Of a DNA stretch of 64,000 nt, positions 7,603 to 26,708 are shown in pieces. Position numbers and translations under genes: made by a program. Under the pieces are notes generated by a model that was given only the letters and a program-made list of their open reading frames with translations, was not told the DNA's origin and ran no database searches. Numbering within the stretch: the stretch's first letter is position 1; every line of letters begins with the position of its first letter. This DNA is from Deltaproteobacteria bacterium (GTDB lineage Bacteria > Desulfobacterota > Desulfobaccia > Desulfobaccales > 0-14-0-80-60-11), in the NCBI GenBank assembly GCA_026388765.1, contig JAPLJC010000033.1, positions 2,408-66,407 on the forward strand, given 5' to 3'.

Positions 7603-7830
7603 TTAATGTCTCGGGCTCAAATCCATTACGGGCACCCAATACTCCTGATTATTCTTCAAGTAGATTCCTTCCATTAGGAAACTAACCCCTCTACGATAGT
7701 ATCGTTTCCATTGTCTATTATTAAAATTTCTTGCTGCTTCACAAAAACTACAATTATGCCTAAAACACGGACGTGGACCAATGGATAGATGATAAATAGT
7801 GTCAGGGTCTACATCGTTTATATCGACCAT
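7603..7830 (-). CDS. AT-rich moron ORF (75 aa, Cys/His-containing), unknown function
   Basis: A visibly AT-rich island in a GC-rich operon. An SD (AAAGGGGAA) precedes the ATG at 7830, and the stop is 4 nt before the MuF-like start. Contains CFRHNCSFC. Confidence 0.5.
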   Translation of the reverse strand: MVDINDVDPDTIYHLSIGPRPCFRHNCSFCEAARNFNNRQWKRYYRRGVSFLMEGIYLKNNQEYWVPVMDLSPRH

Positions 7831-19879: not shown

Positions 19880-20083
19880 TTAAGTGGCCGGGATCAGCCG
19901 GTTCAGAATCTTGGCCGCCTGCCTGATCTTCCGGACCACGTCCGCTAAAATCAGGGTCATGCCGAACAGGTCATTCTCCGAAAGCACCAGGTTGCCCTCC
20001 GTGGCCAGGAGGGTATTGGCCAATTCCAACTTGCAGGCCAGGTGCTCCAGGGCGTCCAGGGCGTCGGCCCGCGGGTATCTCAT
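19880..20083 (-). CDS. Hypothetical protein
   Basis: 67-aa ORF whose start overlaps the upstream stop. Confidence 0.45.
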   Translation of the reverse strand: MRYPRADALDALEHLACKLELANTLLATEGNLVLSENDLFGMTLILADVVRKIRQAAKILNRLIPAT

Positions 20084-20802
20084 GACTCGCCCGCCGCCGG
20101 GCCGGGCAGGGCTTCCTGCCTGACCCCGGCGCTGATCTGCGCCAATTCACGGGCGAATTCGTCCCGCACCAGCTTGCGCCGTTTGTTCTGGAGCACTTTG
20201 CCGAATTTGAATCCCAGGGATTCCAGGCGGCGTTGGATTTCCTGCGCCTTTTCCCTGGAGATTCCCAGGAGCAGGCCGGTTTCTTTGAAAGTCAGATACT
20301 GTCGCCGGTAAAACCTGACCCAGGCCAGGATGTCGTGGTCCAACTTGCCCGCCAGGATCTCCGTGGCCAGGCAGAAACCTTTGTGGACTCCCCGGGCTTC
20401 GGCTTCCTGGAGGCTGGCCTCCATCCTGGGCGCCGCCTGGCGCAACTTGTCTTGAAATTTCTCGACTTTCTCCGGCAGTTTCGCCAGCCATAGACGGAAG
20501 GTCTTTGACTTTTGGGTGCGGGCGAACATGGAGATCAGATTACAGCCGGTTCGGTCGAAGAGTCGGGTAATACCTACACCTTTTGATGTGCATAACCCCG
20601 TTTTGAGGGTCAAGCTATGCGGCTCTAATTCTTCCTTATTTCTCTGGAAGAAGGTGTTAACCGCCTTGGCCGGATTCGCCATACCGAGGCACAGGCCCAC
20701 GTCTTTGGAGGTCAAGTAGTCTTTACCCTCGATCACAAAAAGGCTGACCTGATTACTGTCGAACATCTCGGTTCTGGCCTGTAATTGCTCGTTATTACTC
20801 AT
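20080..20802 (-). CDS. Bro-N domain protein (antirepressor-like) with a C-terminal HTH
   Basis: The N-terminus ...VSLFVIEGKDYLTSKDVGLCLGMANPAKAVNTFFQRN... fits the Bro-N pattern. The C-terminus LTFKETGLLLGISREKAQEIQRRL is HTH-like. Confidence 0.65.
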   Translation of the reverse strand: MSNNEQLQARTEMFDSNQVSLFVIEGKDYLTSKDVGLCLGMANPAKAVNTFFQRNKEELEPHSLTLKTGLCTSKGVGITRLFDRTGCNLISMFARTQKSKTFRLWLAKLPEKVEKFQDKLRQAAPRMEASLQEAEARGVHKGFCLATEILAGKLDHDILAWVRFYRRQYLTFKETGLLLGISREKAQEIQRRLESLGFKFGKVLQNKRRKLVRDEFARELAQISAGVRQEALPGPAAGES

Positions 20803-20839
20803 GGTTTTGTTCTCCTTTGGATGTTTTTAGCTTGGGCAT

Positions 20840-20934
20840 AAAAAAAGCACGGCCCTGACGAGCGGTGCTAAGGGACACCCGAAGGAGAACCCTCCCGGAC
20901 CTTGCGGACACCGGGCCACTCGCCAGAGCCGTGC
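20840..20934 (-). terminator. Intrinsic terminator-like structure: a 16-bp basal helix enclosing a branched loop, followed by U7
   Basis: In minus sense, 5'-GCACGGCUCUGGCGAG (20934-20919) pairs with CUCGUCAGGGCCGUGC (20862-20847), using 2 G:U pairs, and is followed by UUUUUUU (20846-20840). In plus sense the same positions are A:C mismatches. Confidence 0.55.
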
Positions 20935-21021
20935 GCTCTGGTCCATGAAAAACAAAACCCCCTTTTGCGCCCAAGATTGGGTCGCAAGGCCGGGGCAGCC
21001 CCTTTGGGTGTTCTTAGCACC
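20840..21021 (-). ncRNA. Candidate structured leader/regulatory RNA between the remA-like gene and the Bro-N gene
   Basis: A long-range helix pairs 21021-21013 with 20872-20864 (9 bp) and 21011-21006 with 20880-20875 (6 bp). There are internal hairpins, including one with a GCAA tetraloop. The topology crosses the terminator helix, which suggests alternative folds. Confidence 0.3.
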
Positions 21022-21055
21022 TTCAGCATGCCCGGTTTGGGGGATATTTGTCAAG

Positions 21056-21346
21056 TTATTTCTCACTCCCGCCAGCCTCCGCCACCAGCCTCTCACGGAG
21101 CACCGTCGCCGCCAGGGCCGCCAGGATGACATGGTTGCTGTCGGTGATGATGACCGCCTTAGTGCGGCGCCCGGCGTTGGCGATCAAGAGGCGCCCGGAC
21201 GCAACCGCTTCGGCCCGCAGGCGCTTGGCCGGCGCCGTCTCGGGCGCCAAGATCGCCACCACCCGATTCCAGTTGAGAAAATTGCCGTAACCGATATGGA
21301 CCAGGGTGCCCCGGTTCTTGGCCCGCTGGCCGTGTTTAAAGTTCAT
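21056..21346 (-). CDS. remA: RemA / DUF370-family DNA-binding protein homologue
   Basis: LVHIGYGNFLNWNRVVAILAPETAPAKRLRAEAVASGRLLIANAGRRTKAVIITDSNHVILAALAATVLRERL aligns by eye along its whole length with B. subtilis RemA (INIGFGN...SPESAPIKR...GRRTRAV...DSDHVILSA). Confidence 0.85.
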   Translation of the reverse strand: MNFKHGQRAKNRGTLVHIGYGNFLNWNRVVAILAPETAPAKRLRAEAVASGRLLIANAGRRTKAVIITDSNHVILAALAATVLRERLVAEAGGSEK

Positions 21347-24369: not shown

Positions 24370-26708
24370 TCCCACACCTCCGTCGCCGCCTGCAGTTTCA
24401 CTGCCTCGAACCACGCCTCCAGGCGCCGGTAACTATCGCTCTTCTCGAACCAGTGCCTGGCCTGCCGCTGTTCCGGGTTGAGTTTGCCGCCCCGGGCCAG
24501 GGCCTTAATGATGGCCACGTATTCCTGCACCTCGGGCGACTCCTTCAAGTCCTCCAGGACCTGCTGCCGCTGCCGGGCGATGTTGGCCAGCTCCGCCGCT
24601 CCGTCCTCGATCTTCCGGTCCCGGGCCGCATCGGGCACCAGCCGCAGGGCGGCCCGGTCGTCATAGTCCTGAAGTTCCCGGTAAGCCCCGCCCTGGTAAT
24701 CCGCCGCCCCGAAACCGGCCACGGCCACCTTGGGCTTGGGCATAACCGCCAGTTGCCGGCCGTAATCCATCGGACCGCACAACCCCTCGGCCAGCTTGCG
24801 GTTGCCCTTGTGCGCCCGGACGATGCGCGCCTTGGCCTTGATATGCTCCTCCAGGTCCAGGCCGCCCCGCAGGCCGTTGTGCACCGTGCAGATGAAAGGC
24901 CCGGGCTGGCCGTTTTCCAGGCATTCCCAGATGGTGCCCCGGGTGACGTCGGCCAGCGACGGCTTGAAAATCACCCGCTTGCCCTGGAAATTCTGCACCC
25001 GCTCCATCCCCGCGGCGCTGTCCGCCATATAGGCGCCCAGCATCCCGCCCCAACTGAAGCCGGAGTTGTAGGTGCGCTCGAAGGCCGGCGCCATCAGGGT
25101 GTCCAGGTGCTCGGGGGAGGCGATGCGGGGCGCCCGCTTGGGCGAGTTGGCCTGGCGTTCCCACACCAGGCCGCTGCGGCCGAGCCGGCAGTCCTTGAAG
25201 CGGTGCGTCTCGGCCCGGTAGACCTTCTCCAGCCAGTCGGTGACCACCGCCTTCAATTCCGCCGCCGTGGCCCCGCAGGAGAGCTTCACCGGGTTCTTCT
25301 GGTGGTAAAAGACCTCCTGGAAGCGCTGAAATTCGTCGATGCGCTTGCGCTGCACCGGGTTGTGGCCCACGTACCAGGGCAGGGCCTCGAACAGCATCCG
25401 GGCCATCGAGCCGAAAAAGGTCTCGACGTGGGGTTTCTGCCAGGGGGCGTAGGCGTCGCAGTCCCGCTGGGCGATGCCCATCTGGGCGCAGGCCGTGCGG
25501 ATGTGCTGGCTCTTGAAGATCATGCCCCGGTCGCCGATGATCCACTCCGGTACACCCCAGGCCAGGAACCCCTGGCGAAACAACTTGGCCACCGTCAGTG
25601 AGGTGGCGTGCTTCTCCACTTCGATGATGGCGTCCCGGCTGAAGATGTCCACCGCCGCCAGGATCTCGTGGCGGCCGTCGGCCAGCATGACGTCGGCCGG
25701 GGTGGCGTCGATCTCCCAACGCTCGCCGAAATAGCCGGCCTGTTCGCCGGAGAGGCCGCCCTTGGGCTGAAATTGCGCCCGCCAGAACGACGGCAGGCAG
25801 ATGGCCGCCAGCTTCTCTTGTTCCTTATAGAGGAAGGACTCCAAAAACTTGGTGAAGTGGCCGTAGTGGGGGAGGTGCGTGTGCTGTGCGAACTCCGCCT
25901 TCAGCCGCCGGTAGATCAGGGCCTTGTTGCACTCCAGCCTGGTAGCACAGGCATCCCTGCCTGTGGAACTTTTAGGCCACAACTTCACCTGGCCCTTCCA
26001 GAACAGGGCGGTGATGTAGGCCTTCATGTCCGGGGTCATGGTCTGGACGCCCAGGCCCGGCTTCTGATAAGTCCCGTCCGCCTGGAGGCCGTAGCCCCGC
26101 CCCAGGGCGCACAGCCCCGGCGAGTTCTCCTGCTTCGCCGCCCACTTGTAGGACGTTTGCCAGGAGACCTTTTTAATATTCGCCAGGACCTCGGGGATCT
26201 CGTGGGGCTCGAACCCCAGGTCGGCTAATTCTTGATAAACCGCCGCGCTTGGCTCCGACCTTTGCTTTTTCCTGGCCCCTGACCACTGCCACCTTAGCAC
26301 CGCGTTCAGCCGGCCGTAAAATTCCTTCAAGGCCGCGGTCTTGCCTCCTGCCCGGCTCAGACAAAAATTCGCCCCTGCCCGCAACACCGCCGTCCGGGCC
26401 AGGGCTACCTTCATTTCCTTTGGCGTCAGCCTCATGATTTTGGGGGCCTCTTTGACCCGGGCCGCCATTGCCCCTTCCTGCACCATCTGCCAGCCCGTCG
26501 CCGTATCCCGGCGCACCTCCCAGGCCGTGATAGCCTGGCGCACATCCTCAGGCAGGGAGATATAGAGGTAGAGTTTCTTGATGCCGCCCCGGCCTCTACC
26601 CTTTTCGGTACGAAATAACCATTTTTCAGCAAAGGCCCGCACTTTCACCGCCTGGGGCGTTATTCCCATAGCCTCTGAAATCTCGGCCACTGTATAAAGT
26701 TCCTTCAT
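24366..26708 (-). CDS. MuA-like DDE transposase
   Basis: 780 aa with an N-terminal HTH (YTVAEISEAMGITPQAVKVR). The rve-type core shows WEIDATPADV (D), IIGDRGMIFKS (D) and QKPHVETFF (E). Confidence 0.9.
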   Translation of the reverse strand: MKELYTVAEISEAMGITPQAVKVRAFAEKWLFRTEKGRGRGGIKKLYLYISLPEDVRQAITAWEVRRDTATGWQMVQEGAMAARVKEAPKIMRLTPKEMKVALARTAVLRAGANFCLSRAGGKTAALKEFYGRLNAVLRWQWSGARKKQRSEPSAAVYQELADLGFEPHEIPEVLANIKKVSWQTSYKWAAKQENSPGLCALGRGYGLQADGTYQKPGLGVQTMTPDMKAYITALFWKGQVKLWPKSSTGRDACATRLECNKALIYRRLKAEFAQHTHLPHYGHFTKFLESFLYKEQEKLAAICLPSFWRAQFQPKGGLSGEQAGYFGERWEIDATPADVMLADGRHEILAAVDIFSRDAIIEVEKHATSLTVAKLFRQGFLAWGVPEWIIGDRGMIFKSQHIRTACAQMGIAQRDCDAYAPWQKPHVETFFGSMARMLFEALPWYVGHNPVQRKRIDEFQRFQEVFYHQKNPVKLSCGATAAELKAVVTDWLEKVYRAETHRFKDCRLGRSGLVWERQANSPKRAPRIASPEHLDTLMAPAFERTYNSGFSWGGMLGAYMADSAAGMERVQNFQGKRVIFKPSLADVTRGTIWECLENGQPGPFICTVHNGLRGGLDLEEHIKAKARIVRAHKGNRKLAEGLCGPMDYGRQLAVMPKPKVAVAGFGAADYQGGAYRELQDYDDRAALRLVPDAARDRKIEDGAAELANIARQRQQVLEDLKESPEVQEYVAIIKALARGGKLNPEQRQARHWFEKSDSYRRLEAWFEAVKLQAATEVWE

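Follow-up and report, generated by a model that had tools for sequence, protein, structure and literature searches.

What kind of RNA is encoded between the RemA-like and the Bro-N gene of this Mu-like phage, and which gene does it serve? The window analysed here is the whole 64,000-nt stretch, from a deltaproteobacterial MAG. When it is re-read from the minus strand, the gap between the two genes runs from the RemA-like ORF stop at 21056 to the ATG of the Bro-N ORF at 20802, which agrees with the 253 bp given in the preliminary description of this DNA. A 226-nt stretch of the gap folds at -101.8 kcal/mol (z = -3.43), and none of 200 shuffles folded equally well. The core covariance model scores 98.6 bits on the minus strand vs 25.3 bits on the plus strand, so the choice of the minus-sense RNA made in the earlier description was right; all features discussed below lie on this strand. 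ARAGORN found neither tRNA nor tmRNA in the gap, and small ORFs (53-101 aa) were rejected as coding because homologues differ by indels whose lengths are not divisible by three. We propose, with a probability of about 80%, that this structured RNA serves a Mu-like prophage as an antisense immunity module of the c4 type. The proposal offers a concrete function for an unannotated structured RNA, namely the antisense control of an anti-repressor and hence of the lysogeny-to-lysis decision.

The central part of the RNA is an 88-nt c4-like core (20934-20847), recognized by a sub-threshold match to the c4-2 model and by compensatory pairs. It forms a three-way junction made up of the closing stem P1, hairpin P2 with a GCAA loop (20915-20894) and hairpin P3 (20893-20871). 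The 16-bp helix described previously (20934-20919 with 20862-20847, including two G:U pairs) was found again and extends to 19 bp (20934-20916 with 20865-20847), and the U7 tract reported behind it is indeed present at 20846-20840. The four smaller hairpins listed at that time all exist as well, of which GCGACCCAA/UUGGGCGC pairs only with one bulged A. Comparison between loci, which had been suggested as a check, speaks for the fold. Our homologue set comprises 19 distinct loci from phage and metagenome contigs, seven of which constitute a subset of close homologues. In the 19-sequence alignment, paired cells amount to 96.9% and compensatory changes are seen at 17 of the 31 pairs; these statistics were matched by none of 500 shuffles, and slid controls reached at most 51% paired. 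The 7-sequence MAFFT alignment gives 97.2% paired cells and five compensatory pairs. One alignment (A4) was fitted to the model, which counts as a reservation about the c4-type reading. All seven close homologues have a GNRA loop on P2, which agrees with what has been reported for the P2 loops of c4 (PMC2864571 supplement).

Behind P1, 18 of the 19 loci have at least five consecutive U; in the remaining one the U-rich tract is interrupted. The U7 tract, located directly after P1, is thus a candidate intrinsic terminator (T2), at which transcription would end and the 3' end of the sRNA would be set. Since a stem followed by U7 at the end of an operon segment is also what an ordinary intrinsic terminator looks like, one could argue that it merely closes the upstream operon and that the rest is chance structure in GC-rich DNA. 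This reading is hardly credible: the whole cassette of ~250 nt is conserved ahead of homologous and non-homologous genes whatever lies upstream, where the gene varies from locus to locus, and both the compensatory changes and the three-site co-variation described below contradict it. The notion of a discrete, highly structured minus-strand RNA ending in a stem and a U-tract is therefore borne out by the comparative data.

Relatives of the module were searched for by several routes. Blastn of the gap against phage GenBank records gave no match, and no relatives were recovered from IMG/VR with the Bro and RemA proteins as anchors. The strict core pattern GGCGAGTGGCCCG..CCGGGAGG had no matches in IMG/VR and was real in only 3 of 13 metagenome matches, while all nine of its matches in genome_contigs were chance hits in GC-rich coding DNA. 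For the pattern CCGGGAGG..CCTTNGCACC, 22 matches were found in IMG/VR, none of them confirmed by covariance models.

The cassette appears to possess its own promoter. The hexamer TTGACA noticed earlier, its -35 element, is present, with its position shifted by 2 nt (21054-21049 instead of 21052-21047); it is invariant in all seven close homologues, where it is preceded by an A-rich stretch, and almost all of the more distant viral loci have it too. At a distance of 18 bp it is followed by a -10-like hexamer, CATGCT (21030-21025), which a simple consensus scan does not call. The 18-bp spacing and a CAnnnT hexamer (e.g., CATCCT, CACAAT, CAAAAT) recur in 7/7 close homologues. A consensus promoter and terminator scan called none of the module's elements; our promoter and terminator assignments are based on conservation only. 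Transcription would start near 21022. The element had also been placed at an early/middle operon boundary, for which we found no evidence; the genome position of the cassette varies between phages.

The most variable parts of the RNA are its unpaired loop and junction, and these vary together with sites outside the core. The P3 loop carries the segment b' (UUCUCCUUCGGGUGU, 20889-20875), and the junction between P3 and the 3' strand of P1 carries a' (CUUAGCACC, 20872-20864). Upstream of the core, a' finds a 9-bp perfect complement in a1 (GGUGCUAAG, 21021-21013), and duplex prediction pairs b' with b1 (ACACCC-A-AAGGGG, 21011-20999) over 6+6 bp, the GGGUGU of b' being complementary to b1. Downstream, a2 (GCUAA, 20831-20827) is a 5-nt complement of a', and GUUCUCCUU within b' is a 9-nt perfect complement of b2 (AAGGAGAAC, 20817-20809), which covers the Shine-Dalgarno sequence and ends 6 nt before the ATG. 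This distance to the start codon is 6-10 nt in the seven close loci, and b2 overlaps the Shine-Dalgarno sequence in most of the 19. An additional copy of GGTGCTAAG within a transposase ORF (26301-26293) was dismissed as chance, being one extra match vs 0.34 expected.

Each locus matches its own sites. Among the seven close loci, b':b2 matches span 7-9 nt for cognate vs ~5 nt for non-cognate pairs; the best partners of the b'a' segment are its own leader (7/7 rows) and its own trailer (7/7 rows), and the true leader and trailer assignments are each the single best of 5040 permutations. Elsewhere a2 changes along with a' and a1, reading GCAAA in L010, UACCAA in L055 and GUCUA in L054. For the 19 loci, none of 100,000 random re-pairings matched the cognate complementarity sum of a'/a1, a'/a2, b'/b1 or b'/b2, and b'a' pairs best with its own a1b1 leader in 19/19 rows. 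The a1:a' helix became convincing only with this wider family; in the 7-sequence alignment it was not significant on its own, as it showed a single compensatory pair and was equalled by 142 of 500 shuffles. In the 64-kb window, both strands considered and the RNA's trivial pairing with the (+) strand of its own locus set aside, the leader is the best partner of b'a' (-41.2 kcal/mol; mean -18.1, sd 4.8). The trailer duplex reaches -28.1 kcal/mol, by energy only ~2 sd better than the genomic background, and it is thus the co-variation that speaks for the a2b2 pairing. Variable single-stranded segments that co-vary with two flanking sites, one of them placed over a Shine-Dalgarno sequence, are the signature of a P1 c4-type antisense RNA. 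Such naturally diverse recognition boxes, each matching its own targets, represent a ready set of orthogonal RNA-target pairs. They also lend themselves to clean studies of heteroimmunity and of the competition between terminator and antiterminator.

The Rfam scan recommended earlier points in the same direction, as its only resemblance is to c4-2 (RF02944), at 24.9 bits and E = 0.0076 in the window and at 36.8, 33.4, 31.3 and 31.0 bits in homologues, all below the gathering score of 41, which is reached by 0 of 13 related loci. The c4-2 family, grouped together with P1 C4 in clan CL00128, was described as 'likely a distant homolog' of c4 (Weinberg et al., 2017; PMC5737381). Its alignment with our RNA is full-length, with the same P1/P2 (GNRA)/P3 topology and a U-rich 3' end, although the P1 stem is longer here and lacks the internal loop of c4-2. 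A riboswitch for a metabolite, or a processive antitermination RNA of the put type, as suggested in the preliminary description, would likewise be highly structured, with a three-way junction and a terminator behind it. We consider this highly improbable, because no riboswitch family matched the gap even at E = 10 (a c-di-GMP-I riboswitch at another place in the window is found easily), conservation is lowest at the unpaired positions, which co-vary with the external sites, and put RNAs need no complementarity to a Shine-Dalgarno sequence.

The family is most probably a subfamily of the known c4-type kind that lies outside Rfam's models. The C4 model itself (RF01695) has no match in the window at E up to 10, while P1 scores 68.8 bits. 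The reciprocal models of the new family (R1 and R2) find the right place and strand of P1 c4 at 8.4 and 7.5 bits, with E = 0.28-0.46; this is short of significance and thus does not demonstrate homology to the classical c4. To specialists such an element will be familiar, and the surprise moderate. Still, at least 19 distinct members in phage contigs fall below every Rfam threshold, and annotation pipelines therefore miss them.

Three features expected of a c4-type RNA are found together here: a three-way junction with covariation, a'/b' segments complementary to a2/b2, and an upstream target copy a1/b1. The likeness to the immI loci of P1 and P7 includes their layout. The P1 record reads promoter, a1, b1, c4, a2, b2 and icd over about 240 nt, and our cassette keeps this order from promoter to gene, with a structured leader and a terminator-like hairpin, over about 240-250 nt. 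As in P1 c4, a stable tetraloop closes P2, the last hairpin carries b' in its loop, and a' (CUGUCAA in P1) occupies the junction after it; b2 sits at the ribosome-binding site, the control of an anti-repressor is the presumed end point, and recognition sequences diverge between relatives yet stay complementary to their own targets, as they do between P1 and P7. There are also differences. The sites a1 and b1 occupy the extreme 5' end and precede both leader hairpins here, whereas P1 has them in and after the second hairpin. Correspondingly, the c4-a1b1 model (RF03163), defined by a two-hairpin motif that encloses a1 and stands immediately 5' of b1, has no match in the window. The closing stem of 19 bp is directly followed by U7, so termination, and not processing, probably makes the 3' end; a CCA-like tail is absent. 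In the P1 system, RNase P frees the mature RNA from its precursor, and this RNA represses translation in trans, with Rho-dependent polarity. No icd-like leader ORF is found, and the regulator gene itself is the presumed target; it encodes a Bro-N protein, whereas P1 Ant has a KilAC domain, and in contrast to P1 the phage is Mu-like and resides in a deltaproteobacterial MAG. The module would thus extend RNA immunity of the P1 c4, P4 CI and IsrK type to Mu-like prophages of a deltaproteobacterial lineage.

The downstream gene (20802-20080) encodes an anti-repressor-like protein with Bro-N (Pfam, E = 4.9e-5) and HTH domains, which matches 'anti-repressor Ant' families of PHROGs at E = 2e-11 and is unrelated to P1 Ant; its anti-repressor function is predicted from annotation. 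All homologues carry the same upstream RNA cassette. Elsewhere, the cassette precedes different single regulator genes at different genome positions, and across loci these are anti-repressor-type regulators (Bro-N, Rha, ORF6N, T5orf172); in some distant loci the gene is no recognisable anti-repressor (DUF6551 or unknown). It is thus the adjacent anti-repressor-like gene that the RNA seems to serve, and we found no evidence that it controls entry into the Bro/GemA/Gam block, as had been proposed.

The long-range helix described as crossing the closing stem is also real. It consists of GGUGCUAAG (21021-21013) with CUUAGCACC (20872-20864) and of ACACCC (21011-21006) with GGGUGU (20880-20875), and is therefore the pairing of a1b1 with b'a'. 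Together with an additional hairpin, CCAGAGC-GCACG-GCUCUGG (20941-20923), which ties up the closing/terminator stem's 5' strand and which we call anti-P1, it makes up an alternative fold B whose energy nearly equals that of the terminator fold. Constrained folds place the two conformations of the window RNA at exactly the same energy, -89.7 kcal/mol, and 0-16 kcal/mol apart in the seven homologues (~10 or less in 6/7), in keeping with the earlier view that the two helices are alternatives. The anti-P1 hairpin is found in 18/19 loci, with differing sequences and compensatory changes. Since MAFFT mis-registers this hairpin, column-based counting was dropped in favour of per-sequence folding and permutation: cognate spacer:strand pairing averages 13.1 vs 9.5 kcal/mol, a value that none of 100,000 random pairings reached.

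With all sites on one potential transcript, two folds nearly equal in energy and a conserved anti-terminator hairpin, the leader could in principle act purely in cis, the alternative pairings a1b1, b'a' and a2b2 setting read-through and Shine-Dalgarno exposure in response to temperature, a protein, ribosome or RNA polymerase speed, or a ligand, with no RNA acting in trans. A possible cis-regulatory use of c4 beside terminators was raised by Weinberg et al. (PMC2864571 supplement). We regard such a switch as quite unlikely, however, as a terminator within the core separates it from a2b2, which implies a discrete sRNA; moreover, hypervariable recognition segments in an otherwise conserved RNA indicate antisense specificity of the kind behind P1/P7 heteroimmunity and not a ligand pocket, and the sole database resemblance is to the trans-acting c4 RNAs.

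Two near-equal conformers are also known for IsrK of Gifsy-1, where structures of ~180 nt at -85.7 and -84.2 kcal/mol were reported together with terminator read-through (PMC4825925). The IsrK conformers differ in the exposure of a ribosome-binding site. As at the Salmonella Gifsy-1 IsrK/STnc1160 locus, our leader RNA would end at a terminator, which in IsrK is partly read through; further points of likeness are the complementary sequences that the short RNA and a downstream processed RNA share in that locus, and its output, the anti-repressor AnrP. The isrK model has no match in the window, and the effect differs: short IsrK leader RNA was demonstrated to activate translation via an upstream ORF (PMC4825925), while antisense repression is predicted here.

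Returning to the c4-type reading, we take P1 c4, P4 CI and IsrK as the analogues from which to infer where the transcripts end, that the RNA acts in trans and represses translation, and in which direction the switch works. The TTGACA-N18-CATGCT promoter would start an RNA near 21022 whose first 20 nt hold a1 and b1 as decoy sites. Behind them would follow a leader with two hairpins and a G5/U-rich element, the putative first terminator T1, and then the 88-nt core, whose 19-bp closing stem and U7 would form T2 and set the 3' end. The released core would display b' in the P3 loop and a' in the junction 3' of P3. In trans, these segments may bind the a2 and b2 sites of read-through transcripts that extend into the next gene; with b2 covering the Shine-Dalgarno sequence, the ribosome would be excluded, the Bro-N protein would not be made and the prophage would stay repressed. 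In cis, b'a' would pair even more strongly with a1b1, giving fold B with the hairpin that locks the 5' strand of the terminator stem, so that T2 could not form and the Shine-Dalgarno sequence would stay free. Binding of free c4-like RNA to nascent a1b1 would, in turn, push the transcript into the terminator fold.

The leader also holds the putative terminator T1. Its first hairpin, GGGG-CUG-CCCC (21002-20992), overlaps b1 with its 5' strand and is nearly invariant in all loci, so it offers no covariation to test. The CCCC at 20995-20992 can alternatively serve as the 5' strand of T1, whose GGGGG and U-rich tract lie at 20962-20948; RNAalifold pairs this CCCC:GGGG in 7/7 sequences, and no locus lacks the U-rich tail. 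Transcription may terminate here. A terminator-like hairpin stands at the equivalent place in P1, where the isrK model matches weakly, reaching 35 bits over the a1b1-plus-terminator stretch.

In the immunity system of satellite phage P4, which comprises seqA, CI and seqC, CI works by terminating transcription, and its release depends on processing by RNase P/PNPase. This mechanism and its kinship to IsrK have been described (PMC4825925). Judged by the descriptions of P4, our module resembles it in that the sRNA originates from the leader of its own target operon and has complementary sites on both sides, and in the involvement of terminators. The sRNA may act mainly by provoking premature termination at T1/T2 through the upstream and downstream sites, the counterparts of seqA and seqC, with a translation block being secondary or absent. 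Two terminator-like elements flank the sites, occupancy of b1 would free CCCC for the GGGGG before the U-tract, a1b1 pairing is far stronger than a2b2 (-36.6 vs -23.7 kcal/mol on average), and an anti-P1 hairpin exists. Yet pure termination would not need b2 at its place so close to the start codon and, in most loci, on the Shine-Dalgarno sequence, the latter being a difference from P4 CI, and the invariant T1 stem is without covariation support. We see a mainly P4-like mode of action as possible, if rather unlikely; it is compatible with the c4-type explanation.

As a tentative and rather doubtful extension of the c4-type reading, the cassette may work as a self-reinforcing, RNA-only bistable switch. 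When free c4-like RNA is absent, nascent a1b1 would capture b'a' in cis and the anti-P1 hairpin would persist; T2 would fail, and anti-repressor mRNA would be made with its Shine-Dalgarno sequence free. When c4-like RNA is present, a1b1 would be occupied, and either CCCC would complete T1 or the core would be forced into the T2 fold; every aborted transcript would give another c4-like RNA, which amounts to positive feedback. Short transcripts stopping at T1 might serve as IsrK-like decoys that titrate c4-like RNA at induction. If true, such a switch would merge the mechanisms of P1 (translation), P4 (termination) and IsrK (leader sRNA) in one cassette, and a portable one, preceding many kinds of anti-repressor genes.

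The second leader hairpin (20985-20967) is variable, its stem sequence differing between loci with the pairing kept. The AAUC-type loop of this hairpin recalls AAAUC, the loop sequence of the first P1 c4-a1b1 hairpin.

The gap on the minus strand between the stop codon of the RemA-like ORF (21056; PF04025, E = 7.6e-24) and the Bro-N ATG (20802) spans 253 bp, and the RNA structures attributed to it in the preliminary description were all recovered from the minus-strand sequence. The 16-bp helix with two G:U pairs (20934-20919 with 20862-20847) extends to 19 bp and is directly followed by U7 (20846-20840); the 9+6-bp long-range helix (21021-21006 with 20880-20864) and the four small hairpins are present as well. 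The impression of a highly structured region was borne out by folding, in which it beats all 200 dinucleotide shuffles (z = -3.43), and that of a minus-sense RNA by the core covariance model, which favors this strand by 73 bits. Just 3' of U7 (20833-20839, minus strand), an AUGCCC/AUGGCCC-like sequence is able to base-pair with the closing stem's 3' strand (AGGGCCGU), as it is at equivalent positions in four homologous loci (L001, L002, L004, and L010); this pairing puts the U-tract in a loop and is part of an alternative fold in several loci.

We found four database relatives of the Bro-N protein (37-70% identity), all of whose contigs possess a 255-290 bp gap before the gene that is alignable with that of the window, while the upstream genes differ. 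The DNA pattern of the core detected three more metagenome loci, the remaining matches being due to chance, and the leader pattern (GCCCCGGCC..AAAGGGGGTT) matched 17 IMG/VR contigs. In 15 of these, a core was found just downstream of the leader with R1, one of our covariance models, whose E-values are rough owing to a shortened calibration. Three of them are close relatives; the other twelve have diverged further, their cores measuring 72-83 nt and their closing stem being shorter. All sequences other than phage P1 are metagenome-derived. In one IMG/VR contig (L056), a weak c4-like match (23-28 bits) is followed at a distance of ~400 nt by a tRNA gene (7632-7705, minus strand), which may mark a prophage end or attachment region.

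Compensatory changes support the core helices in both the 7- and the 19-sequence alignments. In an unbiased MAFFT alignment of seven cores, stems P1 (19 bp; 20934-20916 with 20865-20847), P2 (GNRA-capped), and P3 have 97.2% of cells paired, with 5 compensatory pairs, against at most 52% when the partners were slid by 1-3 columns; RNAalifold independently recovers the same structure. The alignment of 19 distinct sequences, which is fitted to the model, has 96.9% of cells paired and compensatory changes in 17 of 31 pairs, and none of 500 shuffles reaches any of five measures. The P2 loop is GCAA, GCGA, or GUGA across seven close homologues, in agreement with the stable tetraloops reported to be preferred in c4 RNAs (PMC2864571 supplement). 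The stem of the putative first terminator and the GGGG/CCCC hairpin are invariant and thus receive no covariation support.

The decisive feature is a complementarity between three sites, co-varying between loci. In the P3 loop, the recognition segment b' includes GUUCUCCUU, which is perfectly complementary to the trailer site b2 (AAGGAGAAC; 20817-20809, minus strand); b2 is the Shine-Dalgarno region and stops 6 nt short of the Bro ATG. Right at the element's 5' end, ACACCC is complementary to the 3' part of the P3 loop (GGGUGU) and GGUGCUAAG to the junction after P3 (CUUAGCACC), i.e., leader sites b1 and a1 match b' and a', respectively; GCUAA recurs at 20831-20827. From locus to locus, changes in the loop and junction are accompanied by changes in the flanking sites, as in the b boxes CUUGGUGG/CCACCAAG, UCCUUACGG/CCGUAAGGA, and CUCCUACAG/CUGUAGGAG, and in a boxes including UAGGAA, UGAGUA, UAGACA, UGACUA, UGGAUA, and UGUACA, each with matching a1 and a2. 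When b'a' segments of seven loci were paired with all leaders, the own leader was best in 7/7 rows and 7/7 columns (-36.6 vs. -24.6 kcal/mol); for trailers, the own one was best in 7/7 rows (-23.7 vs. -16.7 kcal/mol), and for both the true assignment outranks every other one among the 5040 permutations. Across 19 loci, a'/a1, a'/a2, b'/b1, and b'/b2 were tested separately, and in each case 0 of 100,000 random re-pairings reached the observed complementarity. No stretch on either strand of the 64-kb window is a better b'a' partner than the leader, setting aside the trivial pairing of b'a' with its own opposite strand. A third a1 box complementary to a' (GGTGCTAAG, 10 nt including the next G) occurs inside the transposase ORF (26293-26301, minus strand). 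As the only such match beyond the element, where 0.34 are expected, it is probably due to chance, though it could be an extra target.

The TTGACA hexamer was confirmed, but at 21054-21049, two bases from the position proposed earlier (21052-21047). Together with an 18-bp spacer and a CAnnnT hexamer it is kept in 7/7 close loci, preceded by an A-rich stretch, which would place the transcript start near 21022, immediately before a1. After stem P1, a U-run of at least 5 is found in 18 of 19 loci and an interrupted U-rich tract in one. The putative transcript ends correspond to these promoter and U-tract positions; a consensus scanner run over the element called neither promoter nor terminators.

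The 9+6-bp helix proved to be the a1b1:b'a' pairing. Folded without constraints, the full transcripts of the seven loci adopt the c4 fold in three cases and the a1b1:b'a' fold in the other four; enforcing one or the other gives energies 0-16 kcal/mol apart (no more than about 10 in 6/7 loci), and identical ones (-89.7) for the window RNA ending at U7. The a1b1:b'a' fold contains the CCAGAGC/GCUCUGG hairpin, in which the 5' strand of the closing/terminator stem is tied up. Its equivalent is present in 18/19 loci with varied sequences (GGAUC/GGUCC, CGGAC/GUCCG, CCAGGAC/GUCCUGG, and others), and none of 100,000 random assignments was as good as the cognate pairing. The near-equal energies and the conserved anti-terminator hairpin support a genuine terminator/antiterminator competition, as previously suggested; its driver appears to be pairing between RNAs rather than a ligand. 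We infer the direction in which the proposed switch would act.

As for the class of this RNA, an Rfam scan at gathering thresholds returned no match in the gap. The only match in the whole window is a c-di-GMP-I riboswitch aptamer (RF01051; 33770-33854, minus strand; 82.6 bits, E = 9.5e-15), located upstream of a 784-aa ORF (33602-31248, minus strand) and outside the Mu-like early region. At permissive settings, the gap gave one meaningful match: 20930-20849 (minus strand) aligns full-length to c4-2 (RF02944), which shares a clan with the P1/P7 c4 antisense RNA, at 24.9 bits (E = 0.0076; gathering score 41 bits). None of the homologous IMG/VR loci reaches any gathering score, their best resemblance being again to c4-2 (~31 bits). 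By Rfam criteria the window RNA does not belong to C4, c4-2, or c4-a1b1, and models built from its family do not recover phage P1 c4. In functional anatomy it shows the features of a c4-type system that can be tested by computation, with a putative anti-repressor gene as the regulated output. We therefore file it as a putative c4-type subfamily, currently under database thresholds. What would set it apart is that the decoy sites stand at the outermost 5' end, that the closing stem also serves as an intrinsic terminator, that an anti-terminator hairpin is conserved, and that the regulator gene is controlled directly, with no icd-like ORF.

The annotated phage P1 record has the order promoter P1c4, a1, b1, c4 (77 nt), a2, b2, and icd start within ~240 nt. 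Reading the P1 sequence against the Rfam alignment puts its b' (UCACUAAC) in the last hairpin's loop and its a' (CUGUCAA) in the junction after it, the same structural positions as in the window RNA. Between b1 and c4, phage P1 possesses a terminator-like hairpin whose window counterpart is the invariant AAAGGGGG plus U-rich block, closed by RNAalifold with CCCC at 20995-20992. The isrK model weakly matches a1b1 and this hairpin (NC_005856, 48230-48311; 35.1 bits, below the gathering score of 50), a link between P1 immI, Gifsy-1 IsrK, and the window leader. The c4 RNA has been described as blocking the ribosome-binding site via a2/b2, with a1/b1 as possible competitors (PMC2864571 supplement); the related IsrK locus combines a read-through terminator with two nearly isoenergetic ~180-nt conformers, and the P4 CI RNA terminates transcription via flanking seqA and seqC sites (PMC4825925).

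The window protein carries a Bro-N domain and an HTH, matches PHROGs "anti-repressor Ant" families (2e-11), and is unrelated to phage P1 Ant (KilAC domain). A Bro-N/anti-repressor-like gene also follows the cassette in L016, a locus detected from the DNA pattern alone, and across the wider family genes for Bro-N, Rha, ORF6N, and T5orf172 proteins stand downstream of it. Three of the diverged viral loci (L054, L057, and L067) have a DUF6551-like or unknown protein there (331-387 aa, only a weak match to the ParB-like DUF6551) in place of an anti-repressor-type one, so that the cassette may regulate other gene classes too. The prophage, on a contig from a deltaproteobacterial MAG, is Mu-like (rve transposase, AAA+ MuB-like protein, and Gam). 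In every close homologue, a 65-70-aa ORF without match in Pfam and PHROGs searches overlaps the Bro/anti-repressor stop codon in apparent translational coupling (window 19880-20083, minus strand; L001 1293-1505; L002 5741-5953; L003 5659-5862; L004 5714-5911). RemA-like proteins are known biofilm/matrix regulators in Firmicutes; their genes (PF04025), for which a PHROGs search gave no match, recur in early regions of these Mu-like phages (window 21056-21346, minus strand; L002 2992-3252; L003 686-934).
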